A DNA stretch of 62,881 bases from Bacteroidales bacterium (GCA_046545815.1 JBKGZA010000002.1:1-62881), one strand, 5' to 3'. Shown: positions 3,781 to 31,203, counted from the first letter of the stretch. Numbers and translations are program-made. The notes: generated from the sequence alone by a model not told the origin.

Positions 3781-4656
3781 TTAATAACCCATTGATCTTA
3801 AAAACCCGTCCTTGTCCCTCCACTCTTTGTGTACTTTAACGTAAAGGTCAAGAAACACCTGCTTCTCATAAAGTGCCTCCAGTTCTTCACGGGCCATAAT
3901 TCCAATACTTTTGATGGCTTCCCCTTTACTACCAATCAGTATTGCTTTCTGACTGTCACGCATCACATATATGGTAGCCCTTATGTTGAGAATCTTTTCC
4001 TTATCTTTAAATTCTTCAATCTGTACCTCAGTTGAGTAAGGTACTTCCTTTTGAAAATTCAGAAAAATCTTTTCCCGGATGATTTCTGATACAAAAAAAC
4101 GTTCAGATTTGTCGGTCAGGGCATCCTTAGGATAATAGGGAGGATTTTCAGGAAGCAGTTCCAGGATTTTGTCAAATACTTCGGGCAGATAATAACCCTT
4201 GAGTGCCGACACAGGAATAATATGGGCACCGGGAATCATTTCCTTCCATTGGGCCAAAACAGGCTCCAGTTCATTCTCGCGGGCCAGATCAATTTTGTTG
4301 ACAATTAAAATAATGGGTATATCGGTCTTTTTAATTCTTTCAATATATTCCAGGTGTTTGTCATATTTCTCCCTGATATCAGTAATATACAGTAGAATAT
4401 CTGCATCTTCCAGTGCGAGGTCAATGAATCGAAGCATTTTTTCATGCAGCTTATAATGGGGTTTGATAATGCCCGGGGTATCCGAATAGATGATCTGGAA
4501 ATTTTCTCCGTTCATAACACCCATGATCCGATGCCGGGTTGTTTGGGCCTTTGAAGTGATAATCGAAAGCTTCTCACCCACAAGCTGATTCATCAGGGTT
4601 GATTTCCCTACATTGGGGTTCCCGATAATATTTACAAATCCGGCTTTATGATTCAT
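3781..4656 (-). CDS. era: GTPase Era
   Basis: 291 aa with P-loop GNPNVGKST, DTPG and NKID motifs, and a C-terminal KH domain. Confidence 0.95.
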   Translation of the reverse strand: MNHKAGFVNIIGNPNVGKSTLMNQLVGEKLSIITSKAQTTRHRIMGVMNGENFQIIYSDTPGIIKPHYKLHEKMLRFIDLALEDADILLYITDIREKYDKHLEYIERIKKTDIPIILIVNKIDLARENELEPVLAQWKEMIPGAHIIPVSALKGYYLPEVFDKILELLPENPPYYPKDALTDKSERFFVSEIIREKIFLNFQKEVPYSTEVQIEEFKDKEKILNIRATIYVMRDSQKAILIGSKGEAIKSIGIMAREELEALYEKQVFLDLYVKVHKEWRDKDGFLRSMGY

Positions 4657-4781
4657 TTCTGGTGATTTCTAATTTTTTAAGAGCCACAAAAATAATACAA
4701 ATTTTCAGGCCGGCTTCATTTCAAATCAAATTTACAGCCAATTTAGCAAGGTCATCCACTGAGGAATTAAATAAAGCCAAC

Positions 4782-4819
4782 AAAAAGGCCCCTTAAACCG
4801 GTGTTTAAGGGGCCTTTTT
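4782..4819. terminator. bidirectional rho-independent terminator-like hairpin
   Basis: Perfect 17-bp stem AAAAAGGCCCCTTAAAC / GTTTAAGGGGCCTTTTT with a 4-nt loop (cggt). It is flanked by A and T runs and lies just downstream of the sigma-factor stop (4845). Confidence 0.75.
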
Positions 4820-4844: not shown

Positions 4845-5345
4845 TCAGTAACCTTGAAGTTTTTCTGACAGCTTCTTTCTGGTGAAGAATATCCGGCTTT
4901 TTACCGTGCCTATTTTAAGTTCCAGATCTTCTGCTATTTCCTTATATTTATATCCTGAAAGGAACATCTTAAAGGGAACACGGAACTCATCGGGTAATTC
5001 CTCAATCTTTCTGTTGATTTCAATGATTGAATACTCGCTGTCCGGCGTGCTTGTAGTACTTTCCTCAGACTGGTTGATAAAATAGTTATTTTCTGTTTTA
5101 TCGTTGTGTGTATTCTCCTTTTGTTTTTTACGATAATTATTGATGAAGGTATTTTTCATAATGGTAAACGTCCATGCCTTCAGATTGGAATGTCCTATAA
5201 ACTTATCCCTGTTGGCCAAGGCTTTATAATAAGTTTCCTGAAGCAGGTCTTTTGCCTCCTCATGGTCTGAGGTCAAACTCAATGCAAACCTTTCCAGTTT
5301 GTCTTCGAGTTCTATAAGCTGTTGATTAAATTCTGTTGCCTTCAT
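4845..5345 (-). CDS. RNA polymerase ECF-type sigma-70 factor
   Basis: Region 2 (LLQETYYKALANRDKF...AWTFTIMKNTFINNYRK) and a region 4 HTH (YKEIAEDLELKIGTVKSRIFFTRKKL). I prefer the internal ATG at 5345 (MKATEF...) over the longer ORF to 5402. No adjacent anti-sigma gene. Confidence 0.85.
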   Translation of the reverse strand: MKATEFNQQLIELEDKLERFALSLTSDHEEAKDLLQETYYKALANRDKFIGHSNLKAWTFTIMKNTFINNYRKKQKENTHNDKTENNYFINQSEESTTSTPDSEYSIIEINRKIEELPDEFRVPFKMFLSGYKYKEIAEDLELKIGTVKSRIFFTRKKLSEKLQGY

Positions 5346-5740
5346 AGTTATTGATTTTTTTATTGTATTATGTTTAAGCAAATATAAAACATATTTAAAC
5401 ATAAATCCAAATATTTTTTAAAGAAATTTTTGGGGGATCATCTTTTTCCAAATAAGAGTAAATGGGGAAATTGGCCACAAACAAGAGTTTTGGATATTTT
5501 TATCCTGGTCATTATAAATAAAGCCAAAATTAAAATACTGTTTAAACAATTTAACCTCTTTTGGGAATAAATTTAAACAAGGATTATAGCGGTGGAATTT
5601 AGGTTTTTAAGATACAAATATCTGTTTTTAGTTCAGATCAATTCAACAATCAGAAGGAATTCATTATTTAGAATAACAACTCTATTCTCTTGTGATTCTG
5701 GTGATTTCACTAAGGGGTTGTGTTAACAGACAATAAGGAA

Positions 5741-6622
5741 TCAGATCGATTTCAATCTCTCATTTAATTCTTTGGGAGATGATACCTTTTCCACATTTCC
5801 AGGGAGTTGAAAACCGGCCTCATGAATTCGAATGCCTGTTATGAAGATGATTTGTCTGTGGAATATATTGGAGAGCTGTTCCACATAACTTTTCAGTTTA
5901 TCCCCGCGTAAAGCTGTGGTGATGGTGGTAAATAAATAATCACTCTTGATGAGGCGGGTAGTTTCAACCAGGTCATTGAAAGGCACGGAGCTACCCAGGT
6001 ATATTACACTTTGTCCTGCCTTCTTAATTAAGTAATTATAGAAAAGCAGCCCCAGTTCATGAAATTCATCCTCAGGAAGGAAAAGAATGAAGGTCTTGGC
6101 ATCCTTTTTATCGGGTATTCTCAGGTTGTCAATAGCAACCATCAATTTTTGTCTGAAAAGATTGGAGATAAAATGTTCCTGGGCCGGATTGATTGAACCG
6201 GTCTGCCATAACAAACCAATACGTTCAAAGAAAGGAAAAATCAGTTTAATGATGGTTTGCTCAAAACCTTCATGCATGATGGCATTGGACAAGACCTGGT
6301 CGAATTTCATCTCATCCAGATCAACCATGGCAATGACCAACTTCTCGATCTGGCTTTCCAGGTCCTTGGAATTATAAGTAAATTTCATTACCTTTTCCTT
6401 CAAATCATGATTATCCAACCTGGATATATCTGATATTCTCCATCCTTCCCGGTTCAATATGGCAATATTGAGCAATTTCTTCAGATCATGCTCGGAATAA
6501 TACCTAATATTGGTCGGTGTCCTTTTGGGTTGTATGACATTGTAACGCTTTTCCCAAATCCTAATGGTATGTGCTTTGATTCCGGATAGCTTTTCCAATT
6601 CCCTTATTGAATAACGCGACAT
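5741..6622 (-). CDS. MerR-family, CarH/LitR-type adenosylcobalamin-dependent light-responsive transcriptional regulator
   Basis: N-terminal MerR HTH (YSIRELEKLSGIKAHTIRIWEKRY). The exact W-x9-E-H motif is present (W QTGSINPAQ EH), followed 38 residues later by the B12 lower-ligand motif E-x-H-x-x-G (EFHELG) in a Rossmann-like C-terminal domain. Confidence 0.85.
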   Translation of the reverse strand: MSRYSIRELEKLSGIKAHTIRIWEKRYNVIQPKRTPTNIRYYSEHDLKKLLNIAILNREGWRISDISRLDNHDLKEKVMKFTYNSKDLESQIEKLVIAMVDLDEMKFDQVLSNAIMHEGFEQTIIKLIFPFFERIGLLWQTGSINPAQEHFISNLFRQKLMVAIDNLRIPDKKDAKTFILFLPEDEFHELGLLFYNYLIKKAGQSVIYLGSSVPFNDLVETTRLIKSDYLFTTITTALRGDKLKSYVEQLSNIFHRQIIFITGIRIHEAGFQLPGNVEKVSSPKELNERLKSI

Positions 6623-6957
6623 GCATTCTAATCATTAAATGAAACATCCGAATTAAAAATCACTATATGTTTAATTATAAATGCCAATTCACTTGACAAT
6701 TCTTATATTTAACAATTATAGAATACATTTGTTTAAACAAGCACATCCCTTATCAGAAATACAAACCATAAAATGAATGGAATGCAATAACAAATTGTCA
6801 CGTTTATAATCTATTACTTAATCATTAAACAAATGTTACTTTCCAAATTTATCAGGAATAAACTATTTTGCAAAAATCATCATTTTAGTTTGAAAAATGC
6901 AATATGGATTTAAACAATCTCAAATTTTATTTGTAAAAATGGGCTATATAGCTTACT

Positions 6958-8268
6958 ATGGGAAAAATAACAATATATTGGTTCAGAAGAGACCTGCGGC
7001 TGGAAGACAATCGTGGATTATATCATGCTTTGAAGGAAAATGACTGTGTTTTGCCCATTTTTATTTTTGACAGGAACATCCTGGATGCACTTGAGCAAAC
7101 TTATGATGCCCGTGTGGAATTCATTTACAAACGGGTACAAAAACTGAAAATAAGGCTGGAAAATATAGGCAGTTCGTTATTGGTATTGCATGGAAAGCCT
7201 ATCGAGCAGTTCAGATTTTTGATACGGAATTATACAACAGGTGAAGTTTATTTCAACCACGATTACGAACCTTACGCCATTGCCCGCGACCAGAGTATTT
7301 CTCAATTTCTGGAAAAGAACCATATAAGAGTCAAATCGTTTAAAGACCATACCATATTTGAGAAAGACGAGATACTGAAAAAGGATGGGAAGCCCTATAC
7401 GGTTTATACCCCTTATATGAAAAAGTGGAAAGATAAGATCAGCAGGAATGTGCTTGTTGAATTCTCCACCAGGAATTACCACCACCGGTTTATAAAAATG
7501 GAGCCGTCCGAACTTCCTTCAATGGAATCTCTAAGATTCAAAGAAAAGGGTATAACTTTTCCTTCCGGCGAACTGAACGAAGCGGTCATTTCCAATTATC
7601 ATCTCAACCGGGATTATCCTTACCTTGATGGTACCACACGCCTTGGAATTCATTTGCGTTTCGGGTCCCTGAGCATACGCAGGGCTGCAAAAAAGGGGCT
7701 CGAGCTGAATGAAACGTGGCTCAATGAATTGATATGGAGAGATTTTTACATGATGATCCTGTGGCACTTTCCTTATGTAACAGATGGCTCATTTAAGTCT
7801 CAATATAATGAAATTGAATGGCGCAACGATGAAGAAGAATTCGCTGCATGGTGTGAGGGAAAAACCGGCTATCCCATAGTTGATGCCGGTATGCGGCAAT
7901 TCAATCAAACGGGGTATATGCATAACCGGGTCCGTATGATTGCCGCCTCTTTCCTAACCAAGCACCTGTTAATTGACTGGCGGTGGGGAGAGTCTTATTT
8001 TGCTGAAAAATTGCTTGACTATGAGCTGGCCTCCAACAACGGTGGATGGCAATGGGCTTCAGGAAGCGGTTGCGATGCAGCTCCATATTTTAGAATATTC
8101 AACCCTCACAGACAAACAGAAAGATTCGACCCGGAACACCGGTATATTGAAAATTGGGTACCGGAATTCCGGGATCCGGCATATAAAAAACCAATTGTAG
8201 ATCATAAATTTGCACGTGAAAGGGCATTGCAGGTTTATAGTAAAGCATTAAAAAAGAACAATTTATGA
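6958..8268 (+). CDS. phr: deoxyribodipyrimidine photolyase / cryptochrome family protein
   Basis: 436 aa with an N-terminal photolyase alpha/beta domain (IYWFRRDLRLEDN) and a C-terminal FAD-binding block (TGYPIVDAGMRQ...GYMHNRVRMIAASFL...DYELASNNGGWQWASGSG). Confidence 0.9.
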   Translation: MGKITIYWFRRDLRLEDNRGLYHALKENDCVLPIFIFDRNILDALEQTYDARVEFIYKRVQKLKIRLENIGSSLLVLHGKPIEQFRFLIRNYTTGEVYFNHDYEPYAIARDQSISQFLEKNHIRVKSFKDHTIFEKDEILKKDGKPYTVYTPYMKKWKDKISRNVLVEFSTRNYHHRFIKMEPSELPSMESLRFKEKGITFPSGELNEAVISNYHLNRDYPYLDGTTRLGIHLRFGSLSIRRAAKKGLELNETWLNELIWRDFYMMILWHFPYVTDGSFKSQYNEIEWRNDEEEFAAWCEGKTGYPIVDAGMRQFNQTGYMHNRVRMIAASFLTKHLLIDWRWGESYFAEKLLDYELASNNGGWQWASGSGCDAAPYFRIFNPHRQTERFDPEHRYIENWVPEFRDPAYKKPIVDHKFARERALQVYSKALKKNNL

Positions 8269-9182
8269 AAATACTAGTTATCGGTGCTACGGGATTTATC
8301 GGAAAACCATTGGTGGAAAAACTATTAAAAAGAAATCATGAGGTATATGTTTTTACCCGAAATGATGAAAAGGCAAGGCGTCTTTTCAGCGACCGGGTTT
8401 TCATTCAGCAATGGAAGACCGATGAATACATTGTATTGCAAGAATATGCCCATAAAGTAGATGTAGTGATTAACCTGGCTGGGGAAAACCTGGGTGAAAA
8501 ACGCTGGACAGGAGACCAGAAGAGAAAGATCCTTTCAAGCCGCGTGAATATTGGTAAAGCCCTTAGCTTTGCATTAAAACAAAGCAAGGACAAACCTTAC
8601 CTCCTTATCCAGGGGTCGGGCGTTGACTATTATGGATTCAGTGAACACCAGACTTTCCCAGAAAAATCCCCTGCAGGGGAAGGTTTTTTGCCTATGTTAG
8701 CTCAACAATGGGAAGATTCGGTGCGAAATATAGAAGAGGACAATACCAGAAAAATATTTATCCGCACAGGCGTAGTGCTGGGGAGAGAAGGAGGTATATT
8801 GCCCCGGATGATGCGACCATTCAGGTTCTTCCTTGGGGGACCTCTGGGAACAGGAAGACAATGGATATCCTGGATACATATCGATGATGAAACCGAAGCC
8901 ATTGTCAGGCTCGCCGAAACTAACGGACTGGAGGGACCATATAACCTGGCCGCTCCCACTCCTGTTACCATGAAAGAATTTGCTGCAACATTGGGAAAAG
9001 TGATGCAAAAACCTTCATGGCTTCCTGTACCGCCATTTCTTCTGAAAATGGTCTTCGGCGATATGGCGAAAGAAATGATATTACAGGGACAAAGGGTGAT
9101 ACCTGAAAAAATTCGGGAGATTGGTTTCGAATTCCGTTACCCGGATTTGGAAAGTGCGCTTACCGAGCTGTTGAAACGCTAA
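8265..9182 (+). CDS. TIGR01777/YfcH-like NAD-dependent epimerase family protein (SDR fold with DUF1731 C-terminus)
   Basis: GATGFIG Rossmann motif at the N-terminus and length about 300 aa. Its ATG overlaps the photolyase TGA (ATGA), implying co-transcription. Confidence 0.8.
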   Translation: MKILVIGATGFIGKPLVEKLLKRNHEVYVFTRNDEKARRLFSDRVFIQQWKTDEYIVLQEYAHKVDVVINLAGENLGEKRWTGDQKRKILSSRVNIGKALSFALKQSKDKPYLLIQGSGVDYYGFSEHQTFPEKSPAGEGFLPMLAQQWEDSVRNIEEDNTRKIFIRTGVVLGREGGILPRMMRPFRFFLGGPLGTGRQWISWIHIDDETEAIVRLAETNGLEGPYNLAAPTPVTMKEFAATLGKVMQKPSWLPVPPFLLKMVFGDMAKEMILQGQRVIPEKIREIGFEFRYPDLESALTELLKR

Positions 9183-16284: not shown

Positions 16285-17043
16285 TTAACGAACGTCCTTA
16301 TAAAATGAATTGGCCTGATCCGTAGCTGTTATCTCAATATTGTTCAGATTGACATGTTGGGGCTGATTCACTGCAAACATTATGATTTCTGCCACGTCAT
16401 CCCCGGTTAAGGGTGTAAATCCTTTATAGGCCTTTTCCGCTTTATCCTTATCTCCTTTAAATCTGACCAGCGAAAATTCTGTTTCCACCATGCCGGGAGA
16501 GATATTTGTAACTTTGATCTTATCTTTCAGCATGTCGATGCGCATTGCCTCAGAAAGGGCTTCCACGGCATGTTTTGTGGCACAATATACATTGCCCTTT
16601 TCATATACTTCATGGCCAGCTATTGAGGCAACATTCAGAATGTGCCCGGAACCTTGTTCGATCATTCGCGGAGCAATCTTTCGCGTGATGTAGAGAAGTC
16701 CCTTAACATTGGTGTCGATCATCCGTTCCCAGTCATCTATCTCACCCTCCTGTATATGACTCAATCCCACAGCCAGTCCTGCGTTGTTGATCAACACTCC
16801 GATGTTTTTCCACTCATCAGGGAGGCTGTCAACTGAGTTAAACACCTCATGTTTGTCTCTTATGTCAAAGCTCAGAATATACGCCCGGGCAGAGTAGTTT
16901 TTTTCTATGGCTTCTTTGAGGCTTTCAAGCCTTTCACTCCTTCTTCCCGTAATGATTACACTCCACCCATTTTCAGCCAGCTTCAGTGCTGTGGCACGGC
17001 CTATGCCTGCTGTAGCTCCTGTAATTAGTGCTATCCTGCTCAT
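16285..17043 (-). CDS. SDR family NAD(P)-dependent oxidoreductase (YdfG-like)
   Basis: TGATAGIG cofactor motif, NNAG, and the catalytic Y-x-x-x-K (YCATK). Confidence 0.9.
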   Translation of the reverse strand: MSRIALITGATAGIGRATALKLAENGWSVIITGRRSERLESLKEAIEKNYSARAYILSFDIRDKHEVFNSVDSLPDEWKNIGVLINNAGLAVGLSHIQEGEIDDWERMIDTNVKGLLYITRKIAPRMIEQGSGHILNVASIAGHEVYEKGNVYCATKHAVEALSEAMRIDMLKDKIKVTNISPGMVETEFSLVRFKGDKDKAEKAYKGFTPLTGDDVAEIIMFAVNQPQHVNLNNIEITATDQANSFYKDVR

Positions 17044-17137
17044 ATCTTCAGTATTTTTTTGGGTTCGGATGCTAAAATAACAAAATTAGTAGGAAGAATG
17101 ATGGATCAAACATTTCTTCGCTACCATTGAATATTTT

Positions 17138-17495
17138 CCCGGTACAGCCGCATTTTTTATCGGTACAAACGGTTTATGCTTCGGTACAATCACATTTTAT
17201 TCCGGTACAGTCGTGTTTCTCTCCGGTACAGTCGTGTTTTTCTCCGGTACAGTCACATTTTTTATGGGTACAATTACATTATCTTCCGGTACATTTGGAT
17301 TTTTGAGCGGTACAATGGCATATTCTTTCGGTACAATCGATATATTTCCTGGTACAATCCAACTTTTTTCCGGTACAATGGGTTTCTTCGCCGGTACAAT
17401 AGATCATTTTCCCGGAACGCAAGGGATTTCTGCTGGTACAAGATAGTTTTTTACCGGTGCAAAGGAAATTAATTTTTGGTACATAGGGATTCTAT
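17138..17495. repeat. 17-unit tandem array, exact 21-bp period, conserved core CGGTACA plus a T-tract
   Basis: GGTACA or a one/two-mismatch variant starts at 17141, 17162, 17183, 17204, 17225, 17246, 17267, 17288, 17309, 17330, 17351, 17372, 17393, 17414 (GGAACG), 17435, 17456 (GGTGCA) and 17478. Units 4-6 are almost identical. The other units have diverged except in the core and the T-run. Confidence 0.9.
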
Positions 17496-17758
17496 CGTGG
17501 AACGCACCCGTCCGACCGACATGCAAGAATCTGGATCTTTTGGAATAATCTTTATTATACCCGTAAAGCCAAATGCTTTGCCAATATCTGACAATCGGTC
17601 AGACGGGGAGCATCCGTTCGGGGGGAAACATCCTAATGGCCATAAATGACAATTATATTCCACTGCAAACTCCAGGTTTCAGGACCTGACAACTTATAGA
17701 TGAATGATCACAGAATGACTATCGAATATCTCTGCCAACTGTAGCTTTCAGGTTTTGC

Positions 17759-17775
17759 TCCCGCAGAATGCGGGA
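17759..17775. terminator. short GC-rich hairpin downstream of the CBM9/DUF5916 gene (terminator candidate)
   Basis: TCCCGCA-gaa-TGCGGGA: a perfect 7-bp stem with a 3-nt loop, about 110 nt 3' of the stop. No U-tract. Confidence 0.3.
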
Positions 17776-17886
17776 CCCATTGCCAACTTCTTCCTCAAAC
17801 CCTTTCTAACAACTCAATGACCCTTGATTCTTCTGTCAACTGAGGCATTTGGTTTGCCAACTGCCCGTTGCCCATTGCCAACTAAA

Positions 17887-20070
17887 CTAATTGAACCAAT
17901 ACGACAGCTTCGCTACCAGCGCACGGTTCTTCTCCCTGAAATTTTCGGGCAAATAGTTGTCAGTATACACAATATACAAGTCGGAAACGGGTGCATACCG
18001 CCATTGGAAGCGAATGTTGGTGTTGATGTTGTCGATCTGTTCGTTATACTGCCAGAAAACCGACAAGAAGAGGCTTCGGGTAAATGTAAAATCAAACTTG
18101 GGTCCAAGCAGCCAAAATTCTGCGTCTTTATAAGGTTCCGGGAAATCCAGATCGTTGTACTCCAGGTTGAGGCTTATGCTGCCATAGGGCTGAAGACGGT
18201 ATTTAAAATTTCCCTCCACATATCCACGGGTGCCATGGAAGAATCCTCCATAGCCGGCAGTAAGGTCATAGTTAAGCAAACTTCGGGGGTCGGATTCGAA
18301 AACGACTTCTGCCTGGTTCCAGCTATAATCCGTACCTGCCGCAAGGGTATCGCCTGTAGTGTGGGTAGGATCAAAGGGATTCTCCAGCTTGATATATTCC
18401 CTTCTGTAATTGAAGGAGATATTGCTCCGGTCAAGAAACACGAATTCATATTTGAATTGGATGAGCTGATCGGTTTGATCCCACTGAGGATTGAAAATGG
18501 ATTGAAACATCAGGTCGGGACCGTGGTTGGCGATCCTTTCCGAGTTGGGATAAAACTTGTATTCAATACGGGGGCTCAGCAGATGATAGCCCGTTCTTCT
18601 TATGTAACCGGTCTCAGCATGATAATCTGCCCCCACATAGTCGTAAGCTCCGTCGATATCCCAATGTTGGGTAGAATAATTGATGGTAGCCGAAGCAGCC
18701 TGATCATCAGAATGACCATCGGGAGTGACCGAACGGTGGTAAAAAGTTTTGCCGGTCCACCGGTTATCAGCACTGGCGAGGTTGTAATCGATGCCAAATA
18801 CCCTGTTGAACCGGTCGGCATCCTCAAATTTTTCCCTGCCGGTGGGAACGGTAAGCTGCTTGTTAATAAAAAAAGCCCCGATATTGGAACGGGAAAACAC
18901 CTGGTGCTGCATTGTGGCCACTGTAAAGTTAGCAGCAGGAATATTGCCTTTGGTTCCTGTTTGCATATTCATCAAACCAATGCGCATATCTTTATTGAGC
19001 TTGCCGCTTAAACGGGCACCTGCATGCACGGGATTGGTCAATCCAATGCGCCGGGAAAAGAAGGGCCGGATATTTTCCTTGCCATAGCCGGTAAAAAGAT
19101 CTTTATTCTCGAGAAAGAACTGCCTTTTCTCAGGGAAAAACAATTCAAACCGGTCCAGGTTGGTCACCTGCTCATCCACCTCTACCTGCGAGTAATCCGG
19201 GTTAACAGTGAGGTCAAGTGTAAGATCCGAACTGAGCGATACGTTGGCATCCATTCCGGCATCGCCTGACCATTCCGTCTGATTTTCTGCTCGATGATTT
19301 CTGGATACTCCTCCAAGTAAATAGGGTATCAGCGATACATCTATCTCCGGGTCCGGCGGGCCATCTTCAAAGATGAGCGTGCCTGTAAACGCCAGGCTTG
19401 CGGTGGGAAACTGGCGGGTTACAGGTGCCCAGCTCGACTTTTCATTCTCCTTTAAATCCAGTCTGGAAAAATTGATACCCCATTGTTTAACGCCTTCCTT
19501 ATACTGAAGGTGCTTAAACGGTATGGCCATCTCGATGGTCCAGTAGTCATCGTATTCAACGACCTCCATTTTCCATTTGCAATCCCAGGTCAGCGACACA
19601 TCTCCTCCTTCCGATTGCAAACCATCCCACTTGGCACCTCCGGCGGAAGCGCCGAAGGAAAATCCATTGGTCTGATCGTTATAAGTGTCCATGAAAATAA
19701 GGAAATTGTCATTCTTGCCGAACTCAAAGTCACGCCGCAACGATTCCACAATATTCTCCCCCGGCATGCTTTCATAGCACTTCACCCCAAAATAAATATT
19801 TTCCTCGTCATAAAGCAACCGGACGGTAGTTTTGGCATTTGCATATCCCGTATCAATAGGCAGTACCCTGTGAAATTCATTGGCAATTTCTGATTTCTGC
19901 CAAACAGATTCGTTCAGTCTGCCATCTACCTGAATATCCTGATTGATTTTCTTAATTTCTATCCGGTGGGTCTGACGGTTATTGCTCATATCAGAAGCAG
20001 TTTTAACCTGCCCGGTTGCCTGGCTTGCAATGCAAGCCAGGAAAAACAGAAAAATCGTTCGTGTGCTCAT
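17887..20070 (-). CDS. secreted carbohydrate-binding family 9 (CBM9)-like / DUF5916 domain protein
   Basis: 727 aa with an N-terminal signal peptide (MSTRTIFLFFLACIASQATGQ) and a large beta-rich body ending in an aromatic residue pattern (..LSYWFN), typical of this Bacteroidota family. Recognised by eye. Confidence 0.65.
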   Translation of the reverse strand: MSTRTIFLFFLACIASQATGQVKTASDMSNNRQTHRIEIKKINQDIQVDGRLNESVWQKSEIANEFHRVLPIDTGYANAKTTVRLLYDEENIYFGVKCYESMPGENIVESLRRDFEFGKNDNFLIFMDTYNDQTNGFSFGASAGGAKWDGLQSEGGDVSLTWDCKWKMEVVEYDDYWTIEMAIPFKHLQYKEGVKQWGINFSRLDLKENEKSSWAPVTRQFPTASLAFTGTLIFEDGPPDPEIDVSLIPYLLGGVSRNHRAENQTEWSGDAGMDANVSLSSDLTLDLTVNPDYSQVEVDEQVTNLDRFELFFPEKRQFFLENKDLFTGYGKENIRPFFSRRIGLTNPVHAGARLSGKLNKDMRIGLMNMQTGTKGNIPAANFTVATMQHQVFSRSNIGAFFINKQLTVPTGREKFEDADRFNRVFGIDYNLASADNRWTGKTFYHRSVTPDGHSDDQAASATINYSTQHWDIDGAYDYVGADYHAETGYIRRTGYHLLSPRIEYKFYPNSERIANHGPDLMFQSIFNPQWDQTDQLIQFKYEFVFLDRSNISFNYRREYIKLENPFDPTHTTGDTLAAGTDYSWNQAEVVFESDPRSLLNYDLTAGYGGFFHGTRGYVEGNFKYRLQPYGSISLNLEYNDLDFPEPYKDAEFWLLGPKFDFTFTRSLFLSVFWQYNEQIDNINTNIRFQWRYAPVSDLYIVYTDNYLPENFREKNRALVAKLSYWFN

Positions 20071-29889: not shown

Positions 29890-29904
29890 TGCTTTACATT
29901 TTAC

Positions 29905-29938
29905 AAAAAAAAGCGCCTTCCAGAGGAAATGGCGCTTT
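29905..29938 (-). terminator. attenuator terminator in the ilv leader
   Basis: On the minus strand this reads AAAGCGCC-AUUUCCUCUGGAA-GGCGCUUU followed by a U8 run, ending about 15 nt before the ilvD ATG. An upstream segment GGAAATGG(T)G (29957-29968) can pair with CGCCATTTCC (29925-34) as an antiterminator. Confidence 0.7.
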
Positions 29939-29968
29939 ATGAATTATTATCATGCACACCATTTCCGC

Positions 29969-30031
29969 TCAGCACTTCACCACAATGCCGGGAAGAATGA
30001 AATAAGAAATGATGAGCAATAAAAACCGCAT
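29969..30031 (-). CDS. ilv operon leader peptide (20 aa, MRFLLLIISYFILPGIVVKC)
   Basis: Minus-strand ATG at 30031, stop at 29971-29969. Ten of the 20 codons are Leu/Ile/Val. It lies immediately upstream of the alternative antiterminator/terminator structures. Confidence 0.6.
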   Translation of the reverse strand: MRFLLLIISYFILPGIVVKC

Positions 30032-30413
30032 AGCCTTTTAAATTTTTATTTGCTTACAAAGCTAAAAGGTGTATGCGAATTGGTAAAATCAAAATACAGC
30101 GATAATACGATCTTTAATAGCCATCTGCTTTGGTTTATTATACTGGAAAGCAGTTGTTTATCCTTCTTATCAAACAGGTATTTTTACAATGGCAAGCGAA
30201 CAGAAAGTACTAAAATTCTTATCCATATTGCCTGACCAAATATAATATAAATACGAAAGTTGGAAAAGGAAGCCTTATCCCGGGACCAGATCCAATTGTC
30301 GGTCAGCCTATCCAAATCACCGGTCGTTGGGACGGAGAAGCTACAAGCCATACATCAATAAAGTTTTCATAGACACAAAGATAATTCCGTCCGATTGCCT
30401 TTCACTCATCCTT

Positions 30414-30816
30414 TTATATCCATGCAGGATTGGTGTTGGCTGCCTTCAGGGCTTGAGTGCCCGTTGTAATTACAGCAATTGTCAAAGCCAGCAAAGAAAA
30501 GATGGTAAAAATGTTTGCCGTACGTTGTTCGGCAGCATATAAACTCTCATAATCACTGTCCATAAAAAAACTGAAAGGTTGTTCCCCGGTAAACTGATCC
30601 CAGGCTTTTATCCAAATAATAAGCCCTGTCAATCACCAGCACCTTGTCCTTGTCGAAACCAAGCTTTTTTGCAGTCATATAATGATGCTGCTTATAAATA
30701 ACCACAGTGCTGATGAACAAGGCAATGGTTATCATAAACTGGGTTGTCACCAGAATTCCGCACAAACGATTCCCCGTACCCCCCTGTTTACTTCTTTTTT
30801 CATTATACTCACCGGA
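30414..30816 (-). pseudogene. decayed remnant of an FtsX/MacB-type ABC transporter permease gene
   Basis: Two frame-shifted fragments match conserved permease blocks: ..NRLCGILVTTQFMITIALFISTVVIYKQHHYMTAKKLGFDKDKVLVI.. and ..FSFFMDSDYESLYAAEQRTANIFTIFSLLALTIAVIT..ALKAANTNP... Most of a normal ~800-aa gene is missing, there are internal deletions, and there is no start. Confidence 0.7.
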
Positions 30817-31002
30817 CTAAAGGATGAAAGGAAAAAGGCCGGATAGGATCCAGCAGATATACCTAATTATCCTGTTTTTTTATTTAAGGCAATGTGTTAC
30901 CGTAACATTTAACCCGAATAATTCAAGAATTATTCCTGTCTCCGACAGCGACTAAGGTTCGCTAAAATTTTTTTCAAAAATTTAAGTTCACCTAAGTCGG
31001 GG

Positions 31003-31054
31003 TTAACCTGCATTTTATTCATATTTATAAAAATTTATGAATAATGCAGGTTAA
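31003..31054. promoter_or_regulatory. large imperfect palindrome ~150 bp upstream of the EndoQ-UvrD fusion gene
   Basis: TTAACCTGCATTTTATTCATA-(12 nt AT loop)-TATGAATAATGCAGGTTAA. The outer 11 bp are perfect, and the inner arm pairs after a 2-nt bulge. Confidence 0.6.
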
Positions 31055-31203
31055 ATGTTGTTGTATATATTCTTTGGATTTTGATTTTAAGAGGGGTGGG
31101 AACAAGTTGTGGATAAATCCCGAAGAAATGTTAATAACGAAAGATTTATCGCGGGAGTTTCTCCCAAAATATTTTGAGAAATTTGCAGGGAAATCCTGTC
31201 TTT

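Follow-up and report, generated by a model that had tools for sequence, protein, structure and literature searches.

What maintains a GGTACA core at a spacing of exactly 21 bp, unit after unit, in the gap between two genes of a Bacteroidales bacterium? The array that raises this question is located in a stretch of 62,881 nucleotides (GCA_046545815.1, JBKGZA010000002.1:1–62881), called the window from here on, inside a non-coding gap of 843 bp (17044–17886). Both genes bordering the gap are on the minus strand: an SDR gene (16285–17043), the first of the string SDR-Ldh_2-argB-argD-argC-argJ, and a DUF5916/CBM9 gene (17887–20070). The array travels with the 3' side of the latter, following its 3' end in every array-bearing genome. 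All the data are metagenome assemblies, which are prone to break inside the array.

Register analysis divides the array into 18 units of 21 bp (17133–17511), with the consensus unit TTTTTTCCGGTACAATCGCAT on the plus strand and ATGCGATTGTACCGGAAAAAA on the minus strand. The well-preserved block (17133–17405) contains 13 units, each exactly 21 bp long and each with an exact core, GGTACA (TGTACC on the minus strand); these 13 consecutive cores start at 17141 + 21k, with k running from 0 to 12. On the hairpin side, the array ends in five partly degenerate units (17406–17511), with cores GGAACG, GGTACA, GGTGCA, GGTACA and GGAACG. The first three of these keep the 21-bp phase, after which a single 22-bp step leads to the GGTACA at 17478 and the last GGAACG. 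A possible decayed nineteenth unit (17112–17132), with GCTACC at the core position, adjoins the -33 element of the SDR promoter described below. Exact GGTACA is present 15 times on the plus strand between 17141 and 17483, and the whole window contains 34 copies, against 15.3 ± 4.1 expected; none of 100 shuffles got to 34. The self-match of the array is 0.61 at lag 21 versus about 0.25 at other lags, and TRF reports a period of 21, with higher orders of 42 and 63. A reading made earlier from the sequence alone (the sequence-only reading) had counted 17 cores. The array it described is real, although the exact cores number 15, the other two being degenerate, and one more degenerate unit is present. 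Its exact 21-bp phase with one 22-bp step is confirmed by the register, the lag-21 self-match and TRF, and the near-identical neighbouring units it mentioned are seen as units 3–5 (17196–17258).

The DUF5916 protein has six relatives at 84–86% identity, the next ones being at about 62%. The most complete comparison is offered by L123/L124 (GCA_051746885.1), where a 946-bp gap is followed by SDR-Ldh2-argB-argD-argC in the same synteny as in the window and where the array has 17 units in exact 21-bp phase, 14 of them with exact TGTACC. Two further contigs end inside the array, one after at least 15 units (L127, JGI Ga0207797_1005738) and one with the first units only (L126, GCA_018335235.1). The degenerate units of the window array (for instance GCGTTCCGGGAAAAT, minus strand) are found again in both. 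The contig of L128, whose DUF5916 protein is 100% identical to that of the window, ends 65 bp after the stop codon, so that the array is not assembled. In L121/L122 (ENA assemblies) and L125 (JGI 3300037826) other genes are located downstream of DUF5916; the former have no array and the latter retains one unit and half of the flanking hairpin. The array is therefore dispensable, being absent from L121/L122 and from L125, although the DUF5916 proteins of L125 and array-bearing L127 share 97% identity. The units of the window follow the same order as those of L127 and of L123, apart from insertions and deletions of whole units. A matrix of protein identities places the window as the outgroup to two pairs, L123 with L126 (94%) and L125 with L127 (97%); with arrays present in the window, L123/L124, L126 and L127, it follows that the array is ancestral within this genus-level clade and has been lost at least twice. 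More distant DUF5916 genes (60–62% identity) have short downstream gaps and no array.

One relative departs from this pattern of descent. By protein identity L126 is the sister of L123, yet the gap of L123 is quite different, whereas L126 closely resembles the window: L126 3958–4528 aligns with window 17886–17419, at 95% identity over 385 nt for the gap after the stop codon and at 98% for the start of the array. At the DNA level the DUF5916 gene and the fucosidase gene of L126 are each 80% identical to those of the window. Two explanations are possible, either a non-coding cassette exchanged between lineages or a chimeric 4.5-kb MAG contig; a chimera could have been joined in the conserved stretch around the DUF5916 stop codon.

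Read on the minus strand, the array is preceded by a long hairpin or inverted-repeat module (17507–17607), with 13-nt arms CCCGTCTGACCGA (17595–17607) and TCGGTCGGACGGG (17507–17519) that form a 13-bp stem. The arms are invariant and the interior is variable; as RNA, the module folds with -47.9 kcal/mol (z = -3.6). Both arms are present in L123 (3990–4090), in L126 (4235–4450, two tandem copies) and in L127 (7165–7270), while L125 contains the left arm only (8755–8780). The module behaves like a small MITE or long hairpin. Other repeats occupy the part of the gap after the DUF5916 stop codon (17732–17886, minus strand), namely four copies of (A)GTTGGCA(A/G), i.e. (A)GTTGGCAA, and a small hairpin, TCCCGCAGAATGCGGGA (17759–17775, minus strand), of the form TCCCGC-N5-GCGGGA. 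These repeats and this hairpin recur in L123 (3903–3940), L125 (8185–8330) and L127 (6586–6720), and the first 100 nt or so past the stop codon are conserved above coding sequence in the window, L126 and L127. A third repeat family is found in the same intergenic hotspot, with AATGAC cores at a spacing of about 11 bp (L123 4600–4670, L125 8920–9050 and, at an SDR orthologue, L423 480–660); inverse GTCATT copies are on the other side of the gap, at about 17640–17820 of the window.

The distribution of differences over the 21 columns of the unit is what distinguishes the array from an ordinary repeat. Of the 99 departures from the unit consensus in the window, 6 are located in the six core columns (binomial P = 2e-8), as are 3 of 91 in L123 (P = 4e-10) and 12 of 96 in L127 (P = 1.5e-4). 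The mean pairwise difference between units is 0.12, 0.06 and 0.24 in the core for the window, L123 and L127, respectively; in the 15 non-core columns it is 0.51–0.54 in the same three arrays, and in the five most variable columns it comes to 0.69–0.70, near saturation. Because these five columns are essentially random, the units must be old, yet their core, A/T-tract and unit length are intact. A comparison of orthologous units points the same way, with 17 differences in 126 core positions against 91 in 315 for the rest (Fisher P = 6e-4). The phase is conserved as well: over the 17 units of L123 there are no small indels, the window and L127 have one single-base step each, and the larger differences between the arrays of different genomes involve whole units only.

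Core and phase are thus under selection. This bears out the claim of the sequence-only reading that constraint on the core, the T-tract and the phase goes beyond recent duplication, since the core is spared while the spacers are saturated and changes more slowly between orthologues. That reading had also proposed that a freely varying copy number without preferential core conservation in relatives would speak for a simple satellite; L123, which keeps 17 units, the exact phase and the core, favours function instead. A neutral minisatellite or VNTR is rejected by the heterogeneity of the columns in three arrays (P = 2e-8 to 1.5e-4). Copy number is 17 versus 18 across about 80% nucleotide identity, but the whole array has been lost in two lineages. 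The information profile contains 1.4–2.0 bits over TGTACC and 0.8–1.4 bits over the flanking T, GG and A-tract, and looks like that of a candidate binding site.

Repeats of GGTACA at this spacing are widespread, and have to be told apart from the array. Four copies of GGTACA at 21 bp are found at a minimum of 120 genome loci in many phyla (one genome per species). Most of the matches listed are perfect satellites with a period of 21 or 7 bp, whose units and neighbours are unrelated. In viral contigs, the one collection on which control hexamers were run, GGTACA gives 70 loci versus 80 for GATGCA and 34 for GACTGA. Among the genome matches listed, no array of six or more units has a non-core identity as low as 0.7; for the window array this identity is about 0.63 (an average of column frequencies). 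A pan-bacterial family of GGTACA at 21 bp was therefore rejected, the control hexamers being similar and the hits mostly satellites with unrelated units. A metagenome scan for three ATTGTACC at 21 bp gave 111 loci, of which the only family member is L361, on the same contig as L127. Outside the genus-level clade we make no claim of a family.

Several look-alikes also have a conserved core and diverged spacers (L330/L408, L335/L357, L106/L370/L372/L377, L378 and L038); they share no common neighbour gene. Inverted double arrays are present in L106 (5652–6008), L372 (8374–8650), L378 (2652–2860) and L038 (3260–3490), where several ATTGTACC units at 21 bp face an equal number of GGTACAAT, with a palindrome between them (e.g. 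ATTGTACCGGTACAAT). Those of L106 and L372 are located between two paralogous genes of about 219 amino acids without a Pfam match; an AraC-type HTH gene is near the array in L372 and an XRE-type HTH gene near that in L106. L330 (reverse complement, 2467–2697), L408, L335 and L357 contain a AATTGTACC core in exact 21-bp phase with diverged spacers, and the intergenic regions around them are unrelated; L330 and L408 are orthologues between which units have turned over. In the 21-bp array of L064 (1809–2060), the core turns from GGTACA to GCCGCA midway, with the T-tract and the CCAT end constant, so the constant parts there are not the GTAC core. Finally, L026, from a related Bacteroidia MAG with SDR and Ldh2 DNA about 69% identical, contains about 27 (A/G)GGT(A/G)CA heptamers between SDR and Ldh2, in stretches at 4500–4690 and 4755–4785 that include a GAGAACC run; more GGTACA heptamer arrays are found in the same MAG at L034 and L115.

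A Pfam scan of all 47 large ORFs of the 62-kb window revealed no Rep, Par, LytTR or AraC protein, in agreement with the earlier statement that no rep, par or LytTR gene is nearby, and neither the window nor about 90 kb of related loci yielded a candidate gene for a binding protein. The regulators encoded in the window are a MerR-B12 protein, an ECF sigma factor, a LuxR-type protein and a DksA-type protein, and its gene content is housekeeping (the arg operon, ilv/leu genes, ftsH, a uvrD-like gene and others). At 4845–8268, an ECF sigma factor, a MerR-family regulator with a B12-binding domain and a DNA photolyase are adjacent, an arrangement that looks like a light-response cluster. Neither further single sites nor TGTACC pairs at 21 bp are present in about 150 kb of the window and its relatives, hence there is no sign of a regulon. 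BLAST searches of plasmids and phages with the array plus hairpin gave no match. An origin of replication was considered and rejected, as there is no GC-skew turn at the locus and no DnaA box (up to one mismatch) in 17044–17886. Elsewhere in the window, a 1.3-kb region (29890–31173) has no long ORF and contains short overlapping ORF fragments on the minus strand, which by eye we take to be remnants of an ABC-transporter (FtsX-type) permease, together with three DnaA-box-like 9-mers at 30219, 30608 and 31108.

Of the known systems, iteron arrays (the 22-bp repeats of the R6K gamma origin, P1 incA) share with the array tandem direct repeats at about two helical turns, in many copies on one face of the helix and in an A+T-rich context; like them, the array could titrate or hand-cuff a protein. 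With 18 × 21 bp it falls within the range of 17–22 bp direct repeats in helical phase by which iterons are recognised. However, only 6–9 bp plus the A-tract are conserved out of the 21 bp of its unit, and it is located in a chromosomal housekeeping setting without a rep gene, DnaA boxes or a plasmid match. Type II and Ib plasmid centromeres (R1 parC; the ParR-bound 20-bp repeats of pSK41) are likewise direct repeats at about 20 bp, on which a small DNA-binding protein assembles cooperatively to give a curved or superhelical complex, and the geometry of the array fits such an arrangement. It differs in the absence of parM/parA and parR/parG from the window and its relatives, and in its chromosomal locus, which is inherited vertically and which sister lineages can do without.

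Operators of the LytTR type (AgrA/ComE) and of the AraC/XylS type consist of an element of about 9 bp and a spacer of about 12 bp, giving a direct-repeat period of 21 bp. The same geometry is seen in the array, where a conserved TTGTACCGG is followed by 12 less-constrained positions. LytTR and AraC operators, however, contain two (rarely three or four) repeats at a fixed distance from a promoter, unlike the roughly 17 repeats of the array, which have no fixed relation to one. AgrA is reported to bind pairs of direct repeats upstream of its promoters. The array does not fit a LytTR-type operator, because in L123 its distance from the promoter is 345 bp greater than in the window, and because L423–L428 contain the promoter without the repeats. 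The analogies to iterons, parC and LytTR sites drawn by the sequence-only reading therefore hold for geometry and for nothing beyond it. Its statement that the layout is not CRISPR-like stands, CRISPR arrays being defined by repeats of at least 23 bp, unique spacers of at least 26 bp and cas genes or a leader: here the conserved part is 6–9 bp, the 12-bp 'spacers' share the A-tract and there are no cas genes. The ARG boxes of ArgR, with a 21-bp period and an arg operon nearby, were rejected since the motif does not match; the same applies to the motifs of sigma-54 promoters, to the IHF consensus, to NtcA (GTA-N8-TAC) and to Tn7-like end repeats. The literature searched for 21-bp arrays, for TGTACC sites and for repeats with phased A-tracts contained no relevant report.

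The reading we prefer, tentatively, is that the array is a phased, curved row of direct repeats to which a DNA-binding protein, encoded elsewhere, would bind, and that it is selectively maintained as an element of double-stranded DNA. It would present about 17 direct-repeat candidate recognition sites, the minus-strand unit consisting of wTTGTACCGG, an A-tract and about five free positions. As the spacing is exactly two helical turns, all the sites and all the A-tracts are on the same face of the helix. The protein would bind one copy per unit, side by side, and the outcome may be a cooperative filament or a wrapped nucleoprotein body on intrinsically curved DNA, with a geometry that would be closest to that of iteron arrays, ParR/parC-type centromeres, or a titration or insulator site. 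The absence of small indels from so exact a spacing, together with the phased A-tracts, is better explained at the level of DNA than of RNA, and we infer that the constraint acts on the DNA and not on a transcript, that a protein binds, and what role the complex would have. Against such docking sites speaks their number, 17 being far above what ordinary regulators use.

Curvature was predicted with a dinucleotide wedge model; the arrays contain one A-tract per 21 bp. In the three arrays the ratio of end-to-end distance to contour length is 0.61, 0.38 and 0.65, with z = -3.1, -5.7 and -3.3, respectively, against shuffles. Among the 378-bp stretches of the window, the array ranks in the top three for curvature, two coding regions scoring higher. 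The predicted intrinsic curvature is supportive of the preferred reading, not decisive.

The first alternative is that the array has no function for the host, being a minisatellite that is selfish or effectively neutral, or part of a small, non-autonomous cassette that moves or recombines; its core would be kept because copying or moving needs it. This we regard as doubtful. Period-21 and period-7 satellites are very common, as the genome and viral loci counted above illustrate; the gap is a hotspot of other repeats (TTGGCAA, AATGAC and tandemly duplicating hairpins); some close relatives have the array and others lack it; and the 95–98% identity of the L126 gap, beside an adjacent gene at 80%, fits horizontal exchange, although that contig could be a chimeric MAG assembly. 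Minisatellites and VNTRs, as well as heptamer repeats of the kind of the cyanobacterial STRR-like ones, also resemble the array in being head-to-tail, in occupying an intergenic hotspot and in gaining and losing whole units. Their units, however, are near-identical in all columns and their number varies fast, whereas the array is saturated outside the core and its number is stable across species-level divergence. Thirteen intact cores and an intact phase beside saturated columns cannot come from neutral decay, and the genome matches listed offer no parallel with six or more units and equally diverged spacers. The array has been stable since the ancestor of the clade, not fast-turning like a VNTR, and no transposase, terminal duplication or second copy was found.

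A second alternative, which we consider unlikely, is an RNA element. The array would be part of a 3' untranslated region, produced by read-through from DUF5916, that exposes some 17 copies of UUGUACCGG in single-stranded form for an RNA-binding protein or sRNA to bind, as a sponge or platform, with the hairpin serving in processing or stability. The array is on the strand of both flanking genes and no intrinsic terminator was detected between the DUF5916 stop codon and the array, so it is likely transcribed by read-through on the minus strand. It is always located 3' of DUF5916, beside the conserved stable hairpin, and it folds no better than shuffles (z = +0.5 on the minus strand and +1.4 on the other), which would leave the sites accessible. 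On the other hand, exact 21-nt spacing without small indels is unexpected for single-stranded RNA sites, and phased A-tracts and predicted curvature are properties of DNA. The search of the window gap for sigma-70 or Bacteroidetes-type promoters and terminators found only the SDR promoter, hence none of the array's own; covariation is not seen, the hairpin arms being invariant. Rfam gave no match at the gathering score for the whole window and, ranked by E-value on the gap, chance-level matches to eukaryotic snoRNAs and lncRNAs only. The array is not a structured RNA and belongs to no Rfam family, and the protein-sponge RNA suggested by the sequence-only reading receives no positive support from Rfam or folding.

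That reading had also placed the array in the 5' leader or upstream region of the SDR/Ldh operon. As a third alternative, the array would be an upstream cis-regulatory region of the SDR-Ldh2-arg operon, acting through curved DNA, activator sites or both, which is improbable. The operon has a promoter at 17081–17110 (minus strand), with a -33 TTTG (17107–17110) and a -7 TAATTTTG (17081–17088), called against the Bacteroidetes-type consensus. In the window the end of the array is about 20 bp upstream of the -33 element, the DNA is predicted to be curved, and a 21-bp spacing is typical for activators that bind direct repeats. The promoter, though, adjoins the array in the window genome only and is not part of it. 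SDR orthologues at 87–90% identity (L423–L428, the first from the same sample as array-bearing L127) keep the promoter in an upstream region of only 171–185 bp and have no array, and in L123 the array is 345 bp further away, separated from the SDR promoter by sequence that includes AATGAC repeats. The array is thus not a conserved part of the SDR/arg control region but independent of the SDR promoter, and its assignment to a conserved leader or upstream element of the operon is not supported.

A translated heptad-repeat peptide is very improbable. The best frame (the plus-strand G-T frame, x-G-T-[IMV]-x-[FLI]-[FL]) runs open for 110 codons in the window and for 104 in L127. Of the window's six frames, three are long and open, no more than expected from a stop-free repeat unit. 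Every frame, however, has stops in at least one genome, and the G-T frame is interrupted by a stop codon in L123 and by a frameshift in L127. Identity between orthologous units at codon positions 1, 2 and 3 is 0.75, 0.77 and 0.73, without a third-position excess of substitutions, and GGT and ACA have no synonymous variants over 13 units. The array boundary lacks an ATG, Pfam gave no match, and a search of 5.8 billion proteins found no homologue of the peptide. The array does not encode a protein, and the earlier conclusion that the constraint is not on protein is upheld by the flat codon-position identity, the stops in relatives and the lack of a homologue.

The preferred reading, a row of sites for a protein encoded elsewhere, can be taken further by including the hairpin. 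Array and hairpin together may be a previously undescribed chromosomal cis-element of uncultured Bacteroidota, a curved platform of about 360 bp that would nucleate a protein filament, centromere-like, insulator- or roadblock-like, or titration-like, and that would be exchanged between species as a non-coding cassette. We give this extended form little credence as a whole; horizontal exchange of such a cassette would explain the 95–98% identity of the gap beside flanking genes that are 80% identical.

The array, then, is real, non-coding, constrained and clade-specific, and it falls short of what defines iterons, plasmid centromeres, LytTR operators, CRISPR arrays and neutral VNTRs. It is told apart from the background of period-21 satellites by its saturated spacers, by its intact core and phase, and by the orthologous arrays of its relatives. 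If it proves to be selfish DNA, it is still a long-lived and possibly exchangeable non-coding cassette. To our knowledge, chromosome organisation and non-coding elements are poorly known in Bacteroidota. If a protein coats the array, it would represent a chromosomal and partner-remote form of iteron- or centromere-style DNA recognition in this phylum, and a clean natural case of selection on helical phase.
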